Virus genome (UHGV): UHGV-0387474
Strand: one strand, 5' to 3'
Length of the DNA: 44,321 bases
Source: a virus
Part shown: positions 1,308-44,321 of the stretch, piece by piece
Layout: each line of letters starts with the position of its first letter
Position numbering within the stretch: the first letter of the stretch is position 1
Program-made: the position numbers and the translations under genes
The notes under the pieces: generated by a model
What the model was told of the DNA's origin: nothing
What the model saw: the letters and a program-made list of their open reading frames with translations, nothing else
Databases searched by the model: none

Positions 1308-1493
1308 TTAAGAAATAAGCTTGTCCACTTTGACTTTTAAAACATCTGCAACCGCTTTAAGGCTTTTTACTGTCGGGCTTGAATCGTTCCATTTGCTAAT
1401 AGCTCCGTTCTTTAATCCAGCCGCCACCTCTACCTGCCTAATGCTCAAGCTTTTTTCTTCGCAGATAGCCTTGATTTTGTCATAAATAAGCAA
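1308..1493 (-). CDS. Cro-like XRE-family HTH regulator (61 aa), TTG start
   Basis: MLIYDKIKAICEEKSLSIRQVEVAAGLKNGAISKWN... HTH paralogous to N-terminus of 2148..2528; AGGAGG RBS 7 nt upstream of TTG; divergent from repressor gene. Confidence 0.65.
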   Translation of the reverse strand: MLIYDKIKAICEEKSLSIRQVEVAAGLKNGAISKWNDSSPTVKSLKAVADVLKVKVDKLIS

Positions 1494-1563: not shown

Positions 1564-1971
1564 CCCATACTTGGGCAAGGAGGTTTCTATGCTTATAAAA
1601 AAACTGTCTTGCCCTGTTCCCTTAATATAAGGTCGCAATAGTGGAATCAAAGAACTTTAAACTGGTCAAATGTAGTGTCAAATACGGCGGAGTTCCTCAG
1701 AGAAGAGGCAAAAACTCATGGTTGATATCCTATAATATCCCACCGTATTATGTACTCCTTATAACCTGTCAGCTAATGGGCGCACACTCCGCAGAACTAA
1801 AACTGCATAAGTGACAGGGTACTTAAAGAAGCGTTTGGGCTATAAAGCGCGGTGAAAACCTGCAAAGTACATAGGGTAAATAAATTTAGCATTGAACCGT
1901 CAGAAATAGCCTTCTGGCGGTTTCTTTGTTTTCCCTCCCTCCTTTCTTTTAGAAAAAATTCATTGTTCCTA

Positions 1972-2147: not shown

Positions 2148-2528
2148 ATGGACTTTTATGAACGATTAAATTCACTAATAAAATCTCAAGGATTGTCCCA
2201 AAGAAAAGTTGAACTCGAACTGGGATTAAGTAACGGAGCAATAAGTAAATGGAAAAAATATACTCCTAACATAGACAAAGTTAATTCTATCGCAAAATAT
2301 TTCCATGTACCGATAGAATGGTTACTGACTGGCGAAGAAAAATCCGAATCCCAAGGATACTACCTCAATTCCGAAACCGCTGAAATGGCACAGTCCATGT
2401 TTGACGACCCTGATATGCGAACTCTTTTTGACATGAAAAGGAATATGCCTCCTGAAAGATTTGCAGCTCATGTTAATTTCATGAAAGAATTATACGAAAA
2501 TGAAAAAAAGAACCGTTATGACGACTAA
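2148..2528 (+). CDS. CI-like repressor, XRE-family HTH (126 aa)
   Basis: MDFYERLNSLIKSQGLSQRKVELELGLSNGAISKWKK...; GGGAGG RBS; first gene of plus-strand lysogeny module. Confidence 0.7.
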   Translation: MDFYERLNSLIKSQGLSQRKVELELGLSNGAISKWKKYTPNIDKVNSIAKYFHVPIEWLLTGEEKSESQGYYLNSETAEMAQSMFDDPDMRTLFDMKRNMPPERFAAHVNFMKELYENEKKNRYDD

Positions 2529-2782: not shown

Positions 2783-3516
2783 GTATGTTTGATGAACTTT
2801 TTGATATATTCAAATTAGAAAATAGGGAAAGTCAGGAATCCCAAATTTCTCATTGGAATGATAGGCATGTCCCTAAATATATTGCTGATATGACATGGTC
2901 GCAGGATTCAAATCAAAGTTTAACAAAAAATGGAAGTTATGATTTAAAAAACTTCTCAAAACATGAAATTGATACAATAAGACACGTATTAAAAATAGTT
3001 AAGCAAAAATACCCTAAAAGCTATCGTTCTTTAGGACTGGCAAATGAAAGTTCTATTATTAAATATAAGCCTAGATATATTCTATATGAATTAATTATAC
3101 TTAAATATGGTCAATCAGATAACTTCATTGATAAATTTGCAGTTGCACTCGCTTACGAAAGTAAAGGGGCTGCTTATAGAAAAGATGCAATCAAGTATTT
3201 TGAAGAATCAGAAAAACATGTTTCTCCAAAAATAATGAATAACTTCATTTCTTACATGCCCTTATGTGTATATACGATGTTTGCAAAGTTATATGAGCAA
3301 GAACATGATTTTGACAAAGCTATTTATTATACAAAAATAGCTAAGAATTATGGAGATTCCGACAATCCTTATTTTGATACTCATATAAATGAATTATCAC
3401 AAAAGAAGAAAAAGGGAGTTTCAAAACGCACTAGAAAAATATCCGCTGAACGTATCGAATTTGAGAAAGATGTAACTAATTCAGCTAAATTATTTTTGAA
3501 ATATATTACTGATTAA
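2779..3516 (+). CDS. Hypothetical protein (245 aa) of lysogeny module
   Basis: Long ORF translationally coupled to ImmA-like ORF. Confidence 0.5.
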   Translation: MSMFDELFDIFKLENRESQESQISHWNDRHVPKYIADMTWSQDSNQSLTKNGSYDLKNFSKHEIDTIRHVLKIVKQKYPKSYRSLGLANESSIIKYKPRYILYELIILKYGQSDNFIDKFAVALAYESKGAAYRKDAIKYFEESEKHVSPKIMNNFISYMPLCVYTMFAKLYEQEHDFDKAIYYTKIAKNYGDSDNPYFDTHINELSQKKKKGVSKRTRKISAERIEFEKDVTNSAKLFLKYITD

Positions 3517-3803
3517 TTTAATCTATGTGTTTTAATAATACCACAGGAGACCATATACCTTGATAATATACTTACACGAAAAAACTTTGAAGAACGTATA
3601 ACAGGTTGTTCCGAATCATCCGGAAATCCTGTTCAGAAAATAAAAGAACAGAAAACGAAAAAAACTAATAATTTTGATTTAGAAAGGTTTATGATAGCTT
3701 GCAATGCCCAAATGGCTCATGACGATGAAATGGAACAATATAAAGATTATGATTAATTCGCAATAAGCATTTTAATATTTTCATCTACTAAAGGAGAGAT
3801 TTT

Positions 3804-4343
3804 ATGAGTATAAAAGGCAAATCTCAAGAGTTGTATATAGGAAAAACAGAGGTTAACATAAAAGATTATCAATGGGGATATAAATTAATAAAAATCCATT
3901 ATAGTGATATTTCAAAAATTGAATATTGTTTTCGTACCATGACCGAAGGTGGATATATGGATTTTCATGATACATACGGACATTTTGAAAGGTTTTGCTT
4001 CCCGCGTAAATCGAATGCAGCAATACAACGAGCAATAGATTACATCGAAGAACGGTACCCTGATTTAGTAATTGAAAAACATAATACAGATGATGACCCT
4101 ATCTATTCTAAAAATGTTTTTATTGCTGTATTATCCTTATTTTGCTGTTGGCCAATTGGGTTAATACTGAATTGGACAACCGGAAAACGTACATTGCAAG
4201 AAAGAATCATGTTTACAGTTTTGATATTATTGATACAGGTAAGTCTATATTTCTTTTGGGTGTGGTACACAAAAATGCAGATAAATAATGCTGTAGATTC
4301 TGTAAATGAGTATTTCAATCAGTTATATAATTTTGGAATATAA
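3804..4343 (+). CDS. Membrane-anchored hypothetical protein (soluble N-domain + 2 C-terminal TM helices); superinfection-exclusion/Abi candidate
   Basis: GGAGAG RBS; C-terminal hydrophobic segments IAVLSLFCCWPIGLILNW and FTVLILLIQVSLYFFWVWY. Confidence 0.5.
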   Translation: MSIKGKSQELYIGKTEVNIKDYQWGYKLIKIHYSDISKIEYCFRTMTEGGYMDFHDTYGHFERFCFPRKSNAAIQRAIDYIEERYPDLVIEKHNTDDDPIYSKNVFIAVLSLFCCWPIGLILNWTTGKRTLQERIMFTVLILLIQVSLYFFWVWYTKMQINNAVDSVNEYFNQLYNFGI

Positions 4344-4402
4344 ATATGATTAATTCGCCCCAGGCGTTTTAATAAAAATACAAGAGAAAAGAGGAATCAG
4401 GT

Positions 4403-4756
4403 ATGAAAACATGGAAATTAGTATCAGGTATTTTATCAATTATTTTATTTGTGATTGTGTCATTACAATCCTGTGCCGCGGGTATTGGAAATGCTCTTTC
4501 AGAAAACGGCGAAGTTAGTGGTAGCGCTGGTTTTATAGTAGCTGTTATGATGCTAGCTGGCGGAATTGTTTCCATAGCCACACGGAAAGGCAGTAAAGGG
4601 GGAAATATAGCCATTATCGTTTTATATGGCATTGCTTCATTGACTGGATTTACATTAGCTGGCAACTATGCAGACCTTAATATATGGGCTGCTTGGTGTC
4701 TAATCTGTACCATTTTGGCTATTATTTCACTTGTAAAGGGCAAAAAAGTAGAATAG
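4403..4756 (+). CDS. Small polytopic membrane protein (117 aa, 3-4 TM)
   Basis: Hydrophobic helices throughout; lysogeny-module position. Confidence 0.5.
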   Translation: MKTWKLVSGILSIILFVIVSLQSCAAGIGNALSENGEVSGSAGFIVAVMMLAGGIVSIATRKGSKGGNIAIIVLYGIASLTGFTLAGNYADLNIWAAWCLICTILAIISLVKGKKVE

Positions 4757-4766
4757 TTTTTTGTTA

Positions 4767-4785
4767 GCCCCTGTGCCAACAGGGG
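4767..4785. repeat. 19-bp hairpin-forming element gcccctgtgccaacagggg; left copy of a 17-bp direct repeat flanking the toxin cassette pair
   Basis: gcccctg[t/c]gccaacagg recurs at 5391..5407. Confidence 0.6.
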
Positions 4786-4874
4786 TACCACCTTGACAAT
4801 ATAATATACTTACCCTGGGAACCGATGGGGCGCTATTCTAGCCACCTACTCTTAAGAGAAAGGGGCTGGTGCTT

Positions 4875-4955
4875 ATGTACGTTACTTTTAATGACTTATT
4901 TACATTTGTTATCATGCTCGTAGCAGTCATAACTCTTGTTAAGCATAAAAAATAA
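4875..4955 (+). CDS. Type I toxin-like hydrophobic peptide (26 aa), Hol-Tox/Fst-like
   Basis: MYVTFNDLFTFVIMLVAVITLVKHKK; AAAGGGG RBS; followed by bidirectional terminator and a convergent consensus promoter. Confidence 0.6.
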   Translation: MYVTFNDLFTFVIMLVAVITLVKHKK

Positions 4956-5037
4956 CGCCCTCGCTCTGGTAAAGTAAGGCGTTATTTTTTACATATACCG
5001 GGGTGGCTAGGTTTCAGCTAGTCATCGGTTCTCTTGT
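4945..5037 (-). ncRNA. Predicted antisense antitoxin sRNA A (convergent, 3'-overlapping toxin A)
   Basis: Minus-strand promoter TTGACA(5072..5067)-17-TATAAT(5049..5044); transcript would run into the bidirectional terminator. Confidence 0.4.
4950..4990. terminator. Bidirectional rho-independent terminator (A-tract/stem/T-tract) shared by toxin A mRNA and convergent antisense RNA
   Basis: aaaaaataacgccc...gggcgttatttttt-type structure: ataacgcc(ctcgctctggtaaagtaa)ggcgttat flanked by A6 and T6. Confidence 0.6.
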
Positions 5038-5043
5038 TAAGTA

Positions 5044-5072
5044 ATTATATTGCATAACCAAACATTTGTCAA
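5044..5072 (-). promoter_or_regulatory. Perfect consensus sigmaA promoter TTGACA-17-TATAAT on minus strand
   Basis: rc of 5044..5072 = TTGACAaatgtttggttatgcaaTATAAT. Confidence 0.65.
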
Positions 5073-5164
5073 ACAGAACTGTACCATGACAATAATATAC
5101 TTAACCAGGCAGCCGATAGGGCGGCTATGCACCCGTTCCGAATCTTGCGGAAAGGGGAATGCTT

Positions 5165-5245
5165 ATGAGTACATACGAGGAATTTCAGATAATCCTGACC
5201 GTAGCGTTATTGATTGTTGCTATTCTGAATTTGAAAAATAAGTAA
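5165..5245 (+). CDS. Type I toxin-like hydrophobic peptide (26 aa), Hol-Tox/Fst-like, paralogue of 4875..4955
   Basis: MSTYEEFQIILTVALLIVAILNLKNK; AAAGGGG RBS; conserved 65-nt leader shared with cassette A. Confidence 0.6.
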   Translation: MSTYEEFQIILTVALLIVAILNLKNK

Positions 5246-5340
5246 AGCCGCTCTGTCCCTGGAAAGATAAGCGGCTCTACTTTGAGTTTGTTACATCACC
5301 GGAACGGGAAGACTTGACCTTCCTTATCGGCTGTCTTGTT
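5240..5340 (-). ncRNA. Predicted antisense antitoxin sRNA B
   Basis: Minus-strand promoter TTGAAA(5375..5370)-17-TATAAT(5352..5347) convergent on toxin B 3' end. Confidence 0.35.
5246..5285. terminator. Hairpin terminator after toxin B (agccgct...agcggct)
   Basis: 7-bp stem, U-rich on both strands. Confidence 0.45.
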
Positions 5341-5390
5341 AAGTATATTATATATCAAACATAGAAAATTTTCAATAACAAAATGAACCG

Positions 5391-5407
5391 GCCCCTGCGC
5401 CAACAGG
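5391..5407. repeat. Right copy of 17-bp repeat gcccctgcgccaacagg bounding the toxin cassette pair
   Basis: 16/17 identical to 4767..4783. Confidence 0.6.
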
Positions 5408-5528
5408 AACCGGCCTACATACCCGAAGATATGCACTATAATTCGCACCTATATTGTACCATCTTCGGGGCGGCTTTGCAAGATATTTGCGGAGCTGTAT
5501 TTTTTATACCTATTTTTAAGAAAATCAA

Positions 5529-6620
5529 TTGAAGGAGGAAAGAGAAATGACTACAAAAGCCCCGAAAAAGAAAAAAGGAGTACTGCCGTCTGGAAATGTC
5601 CGAGTGCAAGTATATCTGTATACAGATGATAAAGGCAAGCGGCATTACAAAAGCTTTGTTGCTCCATCACGCAAGGAAGCAAAGGAAATGGCTACTCGAT
5701 GGAAATTAGATATGAAAGATAAGCCCATAGAGCAATACAATGAACCGGATGAGGACGAGGATGAAGATATCACAGTCAATGATGCTATTGAACGCTATTT
5801 GAACGTCAAGAGCGGCGTTTTAAGCCCTTCTACGCTTAGGGGGTACACTGGTATGCAAAGACAGTATTTCGGCGGCGCATTTGGCCAAAAAAAGCTTTCT
5901 GAACTGACAAGTCCATCTGTGCAAATATGGGTAAGTAATTTAGCTGCAAAAAAACTATCTCCAAAGACGGTAAGAAATGCCTATGGTCTGTTATCTCCAA
6001 CACTGGAAATGTTTGCACCCGAATTAACTTTAAACGTTAAGCTGCCTCAAAAAAAACGTCCTAACTTATATTGCCCCAATGACAAGGATATTAAAAAGTT
6101 GCTGGACGCTATCAAAGGCACTGATTTAGAGATAGCCGTATTGCTGGCTGCGTTTGGTCCACTTAGAAGAGGAGAAATAAGCGCTCTAACCGATAAGGAC
6201 GTGGATGGTAAAATTATCCATGTAAGAGATAATATGGTCAAAGGGCCAGATAATCAATGGTACATCAAACAGCCTAAAACGGATGATAGTACGCGGGACG
6301 TAGAAATGCCAGCATTTGTAATTGACCGGATATCCGAAAAAAAAGGGAAGTTGGTTGACATGAACCCTGATTACATCACACACCGATTCGGACGAGTACT
6401 CAAAAAGATTGATATACCCCACTTCAGATTCCATGACCTGCGGCATTATGCTGCATCCATTATGCACGCCATAGGCATACCGGACCAATATATTTTACAA
6501 CGGGGAGGATGGGCCAGCGACAATATCATGAAAACTGTATACAGAAATGTGATTGACCTGGAATCCGTCCGGCAGAATAAAAAAATTAATAAGCACTTTG
6601 AAAAATTAAACAGCATGTAA
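5529..6620 (+). CDS. int: Tyrosine recombinase / phage integrase
   Basis: C-terminal HDLRHYAAS ... GGWAS ... VYRN (R-H-R-Y catalytic residues), N-terminal arm-binding-like domain, GGAGG RBS; attP immediately downstream. Confidence 0.9.
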   Translation: MKEEREMTTKAPKKKKGVLPSGNVRVQVYLYTDDKGKRHYKSFVAPSRKEAKEMATRWKLDMKDKPIEQYNEPDEDEDEDITVNDAIERYLNVKSGVLSPSTLRGYTGMQRQYFGGAFGQKKLSELTSPSVQIWVSNLAAKKLSPKTVRNAYGLLSPTLEMFAPELTLNVKLPQKKRPNLYCPNDKDIKKLLDAIKGTDLEIAVLLAAFGPLRRGEISALTDKDVDGKIIHVRDNMVKGPDNQWYIKQPKTDDSTRDVEMPAFVIDRISEKKGKLVDMNPDYITHRFGRVLKKIDIPHFRFHDLRHYAASIMHAIGIPDQYILQRGGWASDNIMKTVYRNVIDLESVRQNKKINKHFEKLNSM

Positions 6621-6909: not shown

Positions 6910-7695
6910 TTATATTGAATTAGAATCCTCTATGTACCAGATTTGCTGGGCGCCATTATCCTGGCTATGCCAGCAGGCTCCCTCCAGCAGTCCATTCGGT
7001 GTCGGGTCGAAATAGTACCAGTCTCCTGAGCCGTCCTCCGGGTCGCACACGGTGCCATTCCAGCGGTGCCAGCTGGTGCAGGCATAACCATCCTTATTAA
7101 ATAAGTACCAATGGTGATTTATGACACACCACTTATTAGCCGGGTAAGTTCCATCTGGTCTGCGGTACCACCAACCATTATTATCCTTAATCCACCCAGT
7201 ACGCTCCTGCTCAGTCCAGGTTTTCATGAATTGTTCTGGATTTTGGTACAATTTCTTGATACCACTGGTGGAGCTGCCCCAATCAGGAAGTTGAAAATGT
7301 GGCTTGTCCACAGGAGACTTCCAGTTTCCTCCCCATTCAAGACCGATAGATACGCCAATAGCACCTACACGGTTAAAGAAGCCGCCTATTTCGTTATAGG
7401 CTCCAGCGCCATCATTGCGGAATATATCAAAAGCCGTTCCCCATTGATGATAGGAGCTGTAGCTGCTGCCAGGAGCATTAGTTACAATGTTACCCGGTTT
7501 AGTCCTACCCTGAGCGTATAAAGCATCCTGTTCTGCCACGGTCCGCAGTGTCTCACCTATTTTAATTTTTAATCCCTGTTTATTGCATTCGTCCACCAAT
7601 TGACCTGCTAAAAGCTGTAAGCGTGGATGGCATAATGTGATATCTCTCATAATCATCCTCCAATTATGCTGTTTTTCTGCTGCTCTGTAATCCAT
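6910..7695 (-). CDS. Endolysin: peptidase M15 (VanY/L-Ala-D-Glu peptidase-like) catalytic domain + C-terminal CW_binding_1 (choline-binding-type) repeats
   Basis: SYHQWGTAFDI (SxHxxGxAxD) and DKPHFQL zinc-ligand motifs; C-terminal GWIKDNNGWWYRR.../HWYLFNKDGY.../GDWYYFDPTPNG repeats. Confidence 0.85.
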   Translation of the reverse strand: MDYRAAEKQHNWRMIMRDITLCHPRLQLLAGQLVDECNKQGLKIKIGETLRTVAEQDALYAQGRTKPGNIVTNAPGSSYSSYHQWGTAFDIFRNDGAGAYNEIGGFFNRVGAIGVSIGLEWGGNWKSPVDKPHFQLPDWGSSTSGIKKLYQNPEQFMKTWTEQERTGWIKDNNGWWYRRPDGTYPANKWCVINHHWYLFNKDGYACTSWHRWNGTVCDPEDGSGDWYYFDPTPNGLLEGACWHSQDNGAQQIWYIEDSNSI

Positions 7696-22963: not shown

Positions 22964-23272
22964 TGATGATTCTCCTTTTCCGTTATTAGGTTATTTGTAG
23001 GTGTGTAACCGTCCACCAACGGTTGCCATTTTGTAGGACTTGGCGTGTCCAAAAACGCACATGCCGGAAATTACATCCGCTTTTCAACCTCCAGGCTGTT
23101 CACGCTATGCGTTAGAACCTGTTTCTTTTAAGGACATGTGCTATAGGAGGGAGGTCAAATATAAGAAAAAGCCAAACAAACTTTTACCATGTTTTCACCT
23201 TTTCTGTGTATTCCTATTCCCATTTTACCGTATTAGCGAAAAAAAATCGTCCCCACATTTTAATATTTCCTC

Positions 23273-43697: not shown

Positions 43698-44321
43698 CTA
43701 ATCTTCCGCTTCTATGAGTTCTCCATCTTTAAGCATGTACCATGTATCTGCTTTGATGTTTACTCCATCAACAACTACTGCTTTCCAGTCGGAAATTTTA
43801 CAGCTATTTTGTTCTTCTTCTGCAATAACCAAAATCGAACCTAGCCCTCCTTTTGCCTTTACCCCTTTTCCTCTTGCAACAGATAATCCGTTTTCGCCTG
43901 TTGATGATTTTCCACGACTTGTTGCTGCTCCTCTGTCCCCGGCCGTTGCTGCTCCGTAGTCCCCGGCCGTTGCTGCTCCGCTGTCCCCGGCCGTTGCTGC
44001 TCCGCTGTACCCGGCTGTTGCTGCTCCGCTGTACCCGGCCGTTGCTGCTCCGCTGTACCCGGCTGTTGCTGCTCCTCTGTTCCCGGCTGTTGCTGCTCCG
44101 TAGTCCCCGGCTGTTGCTGCTCCGTAGTCCCCGGCCGTTGCTGCTCCTCTGTCCCCGGCTGTTGCTGCTCCGCTGTACCCGGCTGTTGCTGCTCCTCTGT
44201 CCCCGGCCGTTGCTGCTCCGCTGTCCCCGGCCGTTGCTGCTCCGCTGTACCCGGCCGTTGCTGCTCCGTAGTCCCCGGCCGTTGCTGCTCCGCTGTCCCC
44301 GGCCGTTGCTGCTCCGCTGTA
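43698..44321 (-). CDS. C-terminal part of the wrap-around repeat protein: ~17 more G-[D/Y/N]-[Y/S/R]-G-A-A-T-A octapeptides then a 78-aa C-terminal domain
   Basis: Same frame as 1..501 across the junction; ends ...SRGKSSTGENGLSVARGKGVKAKGGLGSILVIAEEEQNSCKISDWKAVVVDGVNIKADTWYMLKDGELIEAED, stop TAG at 43698..43700. Confidence 0.7.
   Translation of the reverse strand, partial: YSGAATAGDSGAATAGDYGAATAGYSGAATAGDSGAATAGDRGAATAGYSGAATAGDRGAATAGDYGAATAGDYGAATAGNRGAATAGYSGAATAGYSGAATAGYSGAATAGDSGAATAGDYGAATAGDRGAATSRGKSSTGENGLSVARGKGVKAKGGLGSILVIAEEEQNSCKISDWKAVVVDGVNIKADTWYMLKDGELIEAED
43914..44321. repeat. 24-bp tandem repeat array (16 full units + degenerate leading unit), in phase with array at 1..168
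   Basis: Units start 43938 and every 24 bp to 44298; last unit ends exactly at 44321 and unit 1 starts at position 1. Confidence 0.95.

Follow-up and report, generated by a model that had tools for sequence, protein, structure and literature searches.

Two probable type I toxin-antitoxin cassettes of the TxpA/BsrG family, with a candidate 5′-3′ closing helix in their toxin mRNAs, upstream of a phage integrase gene

UHGV-0387474 is a virus genome of 44,321 nucleotides (nt), referred to here, at its full length, as the window. Between positions 4767 and 5407 it carries two paralogous units, U1 (~4793-5072) and U2 (~5086-5375). On the plus strand each unit consists, in order, of a promoter motif, a ~62-nt leader, the Shine-Dalgarno (SD) sequence AAAGGGG, a 26-codon open reading frame (ORF) and a GC-rich hairpin at the stop codon; a sigma-A promoter lies ~90 nt downstream on the minus strand and is convergent on the toxin gene (Table 1). 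The plus-strand motif belongs to an inverted repeat, the other arm of which falls on the -10/start region of the antisense promoter. An earlier note on this DNA had proposed two type I toxin-antitoxin cassettes with Hol-Tox-type peptides and convergent antisense promoters. All the elements it described are present, displaced by a few bases at most, and the comparative evidence agrees with this core claim. We consider it very probable, from the comparison of sequences and predicted structures, that U1 and U2 are type I modules of the TxpA/BsrG/BsrE (Pfam Hol_Tox) family. The cassettes are a widespread and so far undescribed branch of the TxpA/BsrG family, not a new kind of system; a literature search on type I toxin-antitoxin systems and Lachnospiraceae found no paper on them, and Rfam, run over the cassette locus, returned no family at E ≤ 10, nor at gathering scores.

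Table 1. Positions of the cassette elements and flanking features in the window (aa, amino acids; MFE, minimum free energy structure; z, z-score)
Feature	Position	Strand	Remarks
Third toxin-type promoter element	3557..3575	+	upstream of membrane-protein genes 3804-4343 and 4403-4756
Left flanking hairpin	4767..4785	+	GCCCCTGTGCCAACAGGGG; just 3′ of the stop codon of gene 4403-4756
Toxin-1 promoter element	4793..4812	+	TTGACAATATAATATACTTA; TTGACA abutting TATAAT (4800-4805), without -35 box; predicted start near 4812
Fold-back helix, cassette 1, 5′ strand	4807..4827	+	inverted repeat; in MFE and centroid
Toxin-1 leader	4812..4874	+	anti-SD CTAGCCACC (4838-4846) pairs with SD region AAAGGGGCTGG (4859-4869)
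Toxin-1 ORF	4875..4955	+	from ATG; 26 aa, MYVTFNDLFTFVIMLVAVITLVKHKK; identical in L006 and L007; relatives L079, L025, L128
Two-way terminator hairpin 1	4946..4991	both	perfect 14-nt inverted repeat 4946-4959 / 4978-4991, over the last codons
Predicted antisense RNA 1	4948..5037	-	~90 nt; 5′ stem-loop and terminator; -24.1 kcal/mol, z -4.08
Fold-back helix, cassette 1, 3′ strand	5023..5043	+	complementary to the 5′ end of antisense RNA 1
Antisense promoter 1	5072..5044	-	TTGACA-17-TATAAT, 12/12
Toxin-2 promoter element	5086..5103	+	ATGACAATAATATACTTA; predicted start near 5103
Fold-back helix, cassette 2, 5′ strand	5092..5121	+	inverted repeat; full-length fold
Toxin-2 leader	5103..5164	+	anti-SD CCCGTTCCG pairs with SD region CGGAAAGGGG
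Toxin-2 ORF	5165..5245	+	from ATG; 26 aa, MSTYEEFQIILTVALLIVAILNLKNK; many close relatives
Terminator hairpin 2	5240..5282	both	minus-strand U-tract good, plus-strand poor
Predicted antisense RNA 2	5240..5340	-	~100 nt; -33.0 kcal/mol, z -3.85
Fold-back helix, cassette 2, 3′ strand	5322..5351	+	inverted repeat; full-length fold
Antisense promoter 2	5375..5347	-	TTGAAA-17-TATAAT, 11/12
Right flanking hairpin	5386..5415	-	CCGGCCCCTGCGCCAACAGGAACCGG; terminator-like on the minus strand

Assessing these units required a broad sample of relatives. A search with a sense-arm pattern yielded 8 viral contigs with the same layout, and an 18-mer of the antisense arm was found in at least 120 stretches of species-representative genomes; 94 non-identical complete units among the matches listed for the 18-mer form the genome set, with several matches (L023, L028, L029, L053, L056, L059 and others) left out as unrelated promoters. 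An ORF-anchored set, which avoids the bias of the search pattern, was obtained by searching viral contigs with back-translated peptide N-termini and holds 151 unique units among the matches listed. In total, over 240 related cassettes, drawn from genomes of Lachnospiraceae and from viral contigs of the gut, make up the comparison set. The cassette family is very common (at least 120 matches in each of three scans). The genome matches listed come nearly all from Lachnospiraceae, among them Dorea, Blautia, Anaerostipes, Mediterraneibacter, Enterocloster, Roseburia and Faecalicatena, and the viral-contig matches have no host label attached. Cultured strains with complete cassettes include Blautia schinkii DSM 10518 (L055), Faecalicatena orotica DSM 1287 (L050), [Clostridium] clostridioforme AGR2157 (L026), Enterocloster hominis CLA-SR-H021 (L073), Mediterraneibacter glycyrrhizinilyticus An427 (L025), Dorea acetigenes Sanger_03 (L009) and Zhenpiania hominis BX12 (L039).

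Both window peptides are hydrophobic and end in Lys/Asn-Lys, and across the family the peptides are 25-31 aa long and end in K/R-K; they are small (<60 aa) and hydrophobic, have a single predicted membrane helix and are charged at the C-terminus. There are two main subfamilies, MSTYEEFMIILT.ALLIVAILN.KNKK and MVTYSDLFTFVIMLCAVITLV...KK, and a third, more distant one, MVTYSDLIQTGILVVGIIGLF..ANKKK. In the MSTYEE subfamily, differences at codon positions 3:1:2 number 58855:32777:15561 and synonymous to non-synonymous single changes 32880:10243; the corresponding figures for the MVTY subfamily are 13505:5984:2814 and 8746:1580. This excess of third-position and synonymous changes argues that the ORF is a real gene, and by the same measure the toxin peptide is under purifying selection. 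Conservation of the ORFs in homologous loci, on which the earlier note had let its reading depend, is thus found together with a coding signature, which also rules out a miniature inverted-repeat transposable element-like DNA element with an incidental ORF.

To which family the peptides belong is less plain from the window than from its relatives. Peptide 2 matches Hol_Tox (PF16935) at E 0.0021 and 18.3 bits, below the Pfam gathering cut-off of 23.3 bits, and peptide 1 has no match to the Pfam model, so that both fall short of the threshold, and this speaks against the assignment. Among family peptides, however, 46/89 match Hol_Tox at E ≤ 0.01 (best 3.1e-9), and close relatives of the window peptides clear the cut-off with 35.6 and 24.3 bits, the latter a relative of peptide 1. 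The B. subtilis toxins TxpA, BsrG and BsrE likewise exceed the threshold of this model, with 31.3, 34.5 and 50.9 bits. The PF16935 search that had been proposed as a check gives above-threshold matches for close relatives but not for the window's own two peptides. Taken together, the matches of the relatives and those of TxpA, BsrG and BsrE on one model indicate that the peptides are TxpA/BsrG-type and not Fst-type. A resemblance to Fst, also suggested earlier, did not survive: in Pfam and NCBIfam the family peptides match nothing besides Hol_Tox at E ≤ 0.01 (one weak PilX_N match has E 0.14), no Fst-type match appears in either database, the NCBIfam search of the peptides gave no match, and the par-type complementarity to the start region is weak. 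With tblastn, neither peptide had a match among deposited phage records, for which the low-complexity filter may be responsible. The TxpA family has been described with 118 members, some labelled 'holin-like toxin' and some in Clostridiales (Fozo et al. 2010, PMC2887945), and a review of Clostridia names C. bolteae as a carrier (PMC6563280).

A cis-encoded antisense RNA gene overlapping the toxin transcript is indicated by a predicted promoter, a terminator and a covarying structure. The antisense promoters of U1 and U2, rightly described as textbook sigma-A promoters facing the toxin 3′ ends, are the top two promoter matches in 3400-5700. For the ORF-anchored units, the best antisense-strand promoter downstream of the ORF scores 12/12 in 96/150, 11/12 in 41/150 and 10/12 in 6/150, that is, at least 10/12 in 143/150. 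Of random 140-nt windows taken from these loci, 0.8% attain 12/12 and 0.6% attain 11/12, and the sense strand of the region downstream of the ORF never exceeds 10/12. A perfect antisense -35 box is present in 57/85 units, though it lies outside the search pattern. The consensus of the antisense RNA (P2 stem plus terminator) has double compensatory changes in 15/16 pairs. An additional closing stem within the antisense RNA, P1′ (GCCGA:CCGGC), was rejected as too weak, being fully paired in 35/70 versus 26.9 expected with shuffled partners.

The terminator hairpin that had been placed after each ORF and ascribed to sense and antisense transcripts alike is present, with U-tracts on both strands. 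In the family its core begins 2 nt into the stop codon; the minus-strand U-tract, which comes from the Lys-Lys-stop codons, is consistent (mean 6.3 T of 9), and the plus-strand tract is more variable (mean 5.1 T of 9). The U-tracts in both directions and the covariation of the hairpin point to a shared two-way terminator.

Decayed copies of the cassette bear on what the peptide does. The toxin ORF is deleted in L042, L043, L047, L081 and L084, truncated in L109 and without its start codon in L067, and the toxin-less loci (these seven together with L030 and L017) retain the antisense promoter, 5′ domain and terminator. Loss of the toxin with retention of the antisense gene is the pattern expected of a harmful gene. 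It argues against the view that the peptide is a regulated phage membrane effector, either a holin/antiholin-type lysis timer or a superinfection exclusion factor, silenced in the lysogen by the antisense RNA. We regard that view as highly improbable: while the Hol_Tox family is named 'holin-like' and the cassette stands among membrane-protein accessory genes of a temperate phage, the lysis genes are far away, with the integrase between the cassette and the endolysin (6910-7695), and the characterised relatives TxpA, BsrG, BsrE and EF3263 are toxic when overexpressed and restrained by antisense RNAs (PMC2887945, PMC3834814). The conserved ORF, the near-universal antisense promoter, the Hol_Tox matches and the toxin-less copies that retain the antisense gene all support a txpA/ratA- or bsrG/SR4-like layout of a toxin-antitoxin module, as previously claimed for the locus. 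One orphan antitoxin locus, L030, belongs to Anaerobutyricum hallii DSM 3353.

Copies of the plus-strand promoter motif lie at 4790-4812, 5083-5103 and 3557-3575, and the window contains 5 matches to the pattern TATAATNTACTTANCNNG, versus 0.64 expected. Across the family the -10 of the toxin promoter is conserved and the best -35 match, 2-3/6, is at chance level; the distant subfamily has a promoter of the extended -10 type, TGnTA...T. What had been reported as an ~18-bp promoter-like element is therefore present, with a conserved -10, but it has no -35 box and does not stand alone, since it is also the 5′ strand of the 5′-3′ helix considered below. Judged by these motifs, the toxin promoter is weak and the antitoxin promoter stronger. 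The leader had been described as ending in AAAGGGG(N7)ATG: this spacing is found in U2 (SD at 5151-5157), but U1 has 9 nt between SD (4859-4865) and ATG, and the leader measures ~62 nt. In 80/85 family leaders the SD is mostly paired in the MFE structure.

The inverted repeat formed by the two promoter regions spans 30 nt in U2 (90%) and 21 nt in U1 (81%), and sense and antisense transcripts consequently begin with ~25 nt of nearly the same sequence. This likeness is maintained unit by unit: at arm positions 13-21 the sense and antisense arms agree at 7.5/9 positions within a unit versus 5.5/9 between units. In the ORF-anchored set, position 13 is C/C in 53, G/G in 48 and A/A in 12 units, and position 19 is A/A in 46, G/G in 45 and T/T in 20. 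Read as a plus-strand hairpin, the helix has 84.3% of cells paired versus 77.4% in shuffles, and its covariation score is 0.340 versus 0.197 shuffled (0/500 shuffles), with slid controls at or below 0.145. Read as plus-strand RNA, positions 10-22 give standard pairs in 94% of cells, versus 80% when read as minus-strand RNA, and G·U cells outnumber A·C cells 316 to 55 overall and 78 to 25 in the polymorphic core. This strand-specific asymmetry, together with the covariation, argues for pairing within the plus-strand RNA. The distant subfamily, whose leader is unrelated, keeps a complement between leader and downstream region (-40 to -60 kcal/mol, z down to -5.3) that faces a TTGACA-17-TATACT promoter. 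Full-length transcripts of the two window cassettes fold at -75.8 and -78.3 kcal/mol (z -4.73 and -3.73), with the helix in MFE and centroid of both. Experimental mapping of bsrG mRNA has shown a long helix, P1, between the ~35 nt at the 5′ end and nt 232-262; the SD of that mRNA is double-stranded, and SR4 binds its 3′ part (PMC3834814). On balance we lean towards the view that the 5′ and 3′ ends of the cassette toxin mRNA are modelled correctly as paired in a closing helix like bsrG P1, a fold-back step that would depend on read-through of the central hairpin.

Several observations weigh against a closing helix. The G·U excess consists in part of fixed differences at positions 10, 12, 20 and 21, and the ratio of G·U to A·C, 78:25 in the polymorphic core, is 28:21 in the ORF-anchored set. 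The shuffle tests are inflated by the relatedness of the sequences. The central hairpin has a plus-strand U-tract (5.1 T of 9), and much of the mRNA may stop there, before the fold-back partner. The modelled accessibility of the SD, finally, is unchanged by masking of the 3′ untranslated region (UTR), at 0.297 versus 0.299. A remote tightening of the SD of the SR4 kind was rejected on the same ground, full-length, 3′-masked and short transcripts being alike (0.297, 0.299 and 0.287). Gene conversion as the source of the leader/antisense identity is unlikely, as the identical 9-nt core lies between fixed differences (positions 7 and 9, C versus A) and a non-homologous hairpin.

It is also conceivable, though we think it unlikely, that the cassettes act in the manner of par/Fst. 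The toxin mRNA would then end at the shared terminator, and the antisense 5′ domain would pair in trans with the SD and start codon and block translation, so that the similarity of leader and antisense RNA would serve this trans pairing and not a 5′-3′ helix. The U-tracts on both strands of the central hairpin would suit such an action, as would the copy of the leader anti-SD held by the antisense 5′ domain (U1 CTAGCCACC, U2 CCCGTTCCGG); yet the segment shared in the distant subfamily excludes the anti-SD, and the covarying positions 13 and 20 lie outside any SD pairing. The antisense 5′ domain of U2 can form 10/11 pairs with CGGAAAGGGGA, and local similarity of the anti-SD is 7.94 for cognate versus 5.69 for non-cognate partners, but a duplex between start region and antisense 5′ domain has an energy of -18.65 for cognate combinations, hardly better than -16.96 for non-cognate and -15.9 ± 3.9 for shuffled ones. 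The G·U asymmetry likewise favours pairing inside the plus-strand RNA, and direct repeats that give the antitoxin 5′ end complementarity to the toxin start region, as in par, were not found in the cassettes.

With the closing helix as the favoured structure, we propose the following course of events. Part or all of the toxin transcript would read through the central hairpin, and the first ~20 nt of the toxin mRNA would pair with the region opposite the antisense start to form the 5′-3′ helix. Closed and with its SD masked, this mRNA would be stable and poorly translated. The abundant ~95-nt antisense RNA would be fully complementary to its 3′ part, comprising the terminator, the 3′ UTR and the 3′ strand of the helix; pairing would probably begin at the complementary terminator loops and open the closing helix, and the resulting long duplex would be passed to RNase III and exonucleases, so that no toxin is made while the prophage is transcribed. 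Should the supply of antisense RNA stop, through prophage loss or transcription shut-off, the longer-lived toxin mRNA would be translated and the membrane damaged. A role in prophage maintenance or abortive infection is likely. More tentatively, the cassettes may embody a distinct and compact kind of RNA pair, the antitoxin RNA beginning with ~20 nt that repeat the start of the toxin mRNA. The antitoxin would act by strand exchange, displacing the mRNA's own 5′ end from the closing helix, and this displacement by itself would switch the mRNA from a stable, silent to a degradable state. Complete units might, in addition, insert or multiply as modules at the hairpin ahead of phage integrase genes; we hold this combined proposal to be doubtful. 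The idea of mobility arises because the promoters themselves belong to the repeat, and such movement would explain both the bracketing 17-mers described below and the one- and two-cassette variants.

The 17-mer GCCCCTG[T/C]GCCAACAGG occurs in the 44-kb window at 4767 and 5391 only (2 matches versus 0.10 expected), and the pair had been taken to bracket an inserted module. Its restriction to the two borders stands, but the right-hand copy has another affiliation. The right hairpin, with the next ~110 nt to the integrase start, is conserved in Blautia phage Montmirail (ON453898), which has no cassette there, and it was the sole match in a blastn search of the locus against phage records. By this comparison the right hairpin is part of the integrase upstream region, so that insertion as a module is supported in part only. 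In 18 counted placements this hairpin sits ~50 nt past the antisense arm, and among the loci, hairpins similar to the left flank occur upstream of the toxin promoter only in L007, L040 and L048. A duplication of the target hairpin upon insertion is possible. The window encodes a tyrosine integrase at 5547-6620, and in at least 18 other loci, too, a gene for such an integrase immediately follows the cassette. L006 and L007 have the same neighbour genes and a single cassette, which corresponds to U1 up to CTTGTTAAGTA and then continues with the U2 promoter and flank; this hybrid indicates that twin and single arrangements differ by recombination between the repeated arms.

Arrays of 2-4 neighbouring cassettes with differing peptide subfamilies are found, as in the window, on single contigs (L096, L062, L105, L340, L357, L101 and L151), and multiplication of non-identical cassettes seems, from such contigs, to be common. 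The integrase upstream region at 5386-5528 is conserved with positions 2490-2665 of L364 (Montmirail, an isolated phage of Blautia coccoides). Besides the hairpin CCGGCCCCTGCGCCAACAGGAACCGG, this stretch contains another inverted repeat (CCGAAGAT...ATCTTCGG) and, at 5470-5498, a terminator-like hairpin with a T-run behind it; it may be a regulatory leader of int.

To judge from its genes, which include XRE-type regulators, an ImmA-like fragment, membrane-protein accessory genes, the tyrosine integrase and the endolysin, the window is a temperate phage, and the cassettes sit in the lysogeny/accessory-gene region of this probable Lachnospiraceae phage. The third copy of the toxin-type promoter element, which the earlier note had placed ahead of the membrane-protein gene at 3804, is indeed there; it has no convincing inverted partner in the repeat list of the window and probably drives genes 3804-4756. 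Ahead of the ribosome-binding sites of 3804-4343 and 4403-4756 lies a repeated intergenic element (TATGATTAATTCGC, a short hairpin, TTTTAATA), with pairs at 3491-3550 / 4328-4387 (72% identical) and 3748-3777 / 4345-4374 (83%). Elsewhere in the window, a strong match to the Rfam family FuFi-1 RNA (RF02986) at 1765-1926 (+), scoring 135.7 bits against a gathering score of 59.6, falls between divergent XRE-type regulators at 1308-1493 (-) and 2148-2528 (+) in the presumed lysogeny switch. Adjacent Rfam matches to GP20-b (RF03003, 42.9 bits) and RAGATH-21 (RF03097, 81.7 bits) occupy 22987-23142 (-). The two ends of the window, 1-158 and 43921-44320, lie in one 24-nt tandem array (unit GTTGCTGCTCCGCTGTCCCCGGCC; 6.6 and 16.7 copies). 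As a phage contig the window is probably circular, or circularly permuted, and opened within a gene that contains repeats.

Type I toxin-antitoxin systems in Clostridia have barely been described outside C. difficile; for C. bolteae and C. asparagiforme a review gives only TxpA-like and Fst-like peptide matches (PMC6563280). The cassettes offer a concrete candidate for a system that maintains prophages or aborts infection in the dominant commensals of the human gut, as well as an independent, sequence-diverse data set for the 5′-3′ closing helix, so far mapped in bsrG only. Short toxin/antitoxin pairs might also become counter-selection tools for gut Clostridia that are hard to manipulate, comparable to their use in C. 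difficile. The accepted view of how type I systems work is unchanged by the cassettes.

Among known systems, bsrG/SR4 of the SPbeta prophage of B. subtilis (and with it bsrE/SR5 and bsrH/as-bsrH) shares a peptide of Hol_Tox type that begins with M-[ST]-[TV]-Y-E and has a Lys-rich C-terminus, residence in a prophage, an antitoxin promoter much stronger than the toxin promoter, and a convergently transcribed antisense RNA, predicted in the cassettes, that is complementary to the toxin mRNA in its 3′ part (layout: PMC8594479, PMC3834814). An SD in a double-stranded region and a long 5′-3′ helix, P1, are further points of agreement (PMC3834814), the helix being predicted from covariation in the cassettes. 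In contrast to bsrG/SR4, the cassette peptides have 25-31 aa versus 38 and the antisense RNA ~95 nt versus ~180 nt, the antisense terminator is a hairpin that is shared with the toxin gene and sits at its stop codon, no further toxin terminator is apparent beyond the closing helix, the inverted repeat takes in the -10/start regions of both promoters, and there is no nucleotide similarity. The txpA/ratA system of the B. subtilis skin element and E. faecalis EF3263 belong to the same toxin family, and EF3263 has a ~110-nt antisense RNA over the 3′ UTR; TxpA, however, has 59 aa with a long C-terminal tail, and RatA is 222 nt long with its own terminator. For par of pAD1, Weaver's work reportedly shows that the convergent RNAs share one two-way terminator and that the antitoxin RNA measures ~65-100 nt. 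The cassettes resemble this fst RNA I / RNA II pair in the shared two-way terminator and the short antitoxin RNA (family layout: PMC8594479). They differ from it in that their peptide is not Fst-like, having no Fst-type Pfam or NCBIfam match, and in that the direct repeats of par make the 5′ ends complementary, whereas the inverted repeat of the cassettes makes them alike. The hok mRNA is stable and translationally masked, with a 5′-3′ closing helix; Sok acts at the 5′ leader, and hok is activated by 3′ trimming. Although hok/sok comes from another phylum and another toxin family, a closing helix between the 5′ and 3′ ends of a masked toxin mRNA is what the cassettes are predicted to have in common with it.

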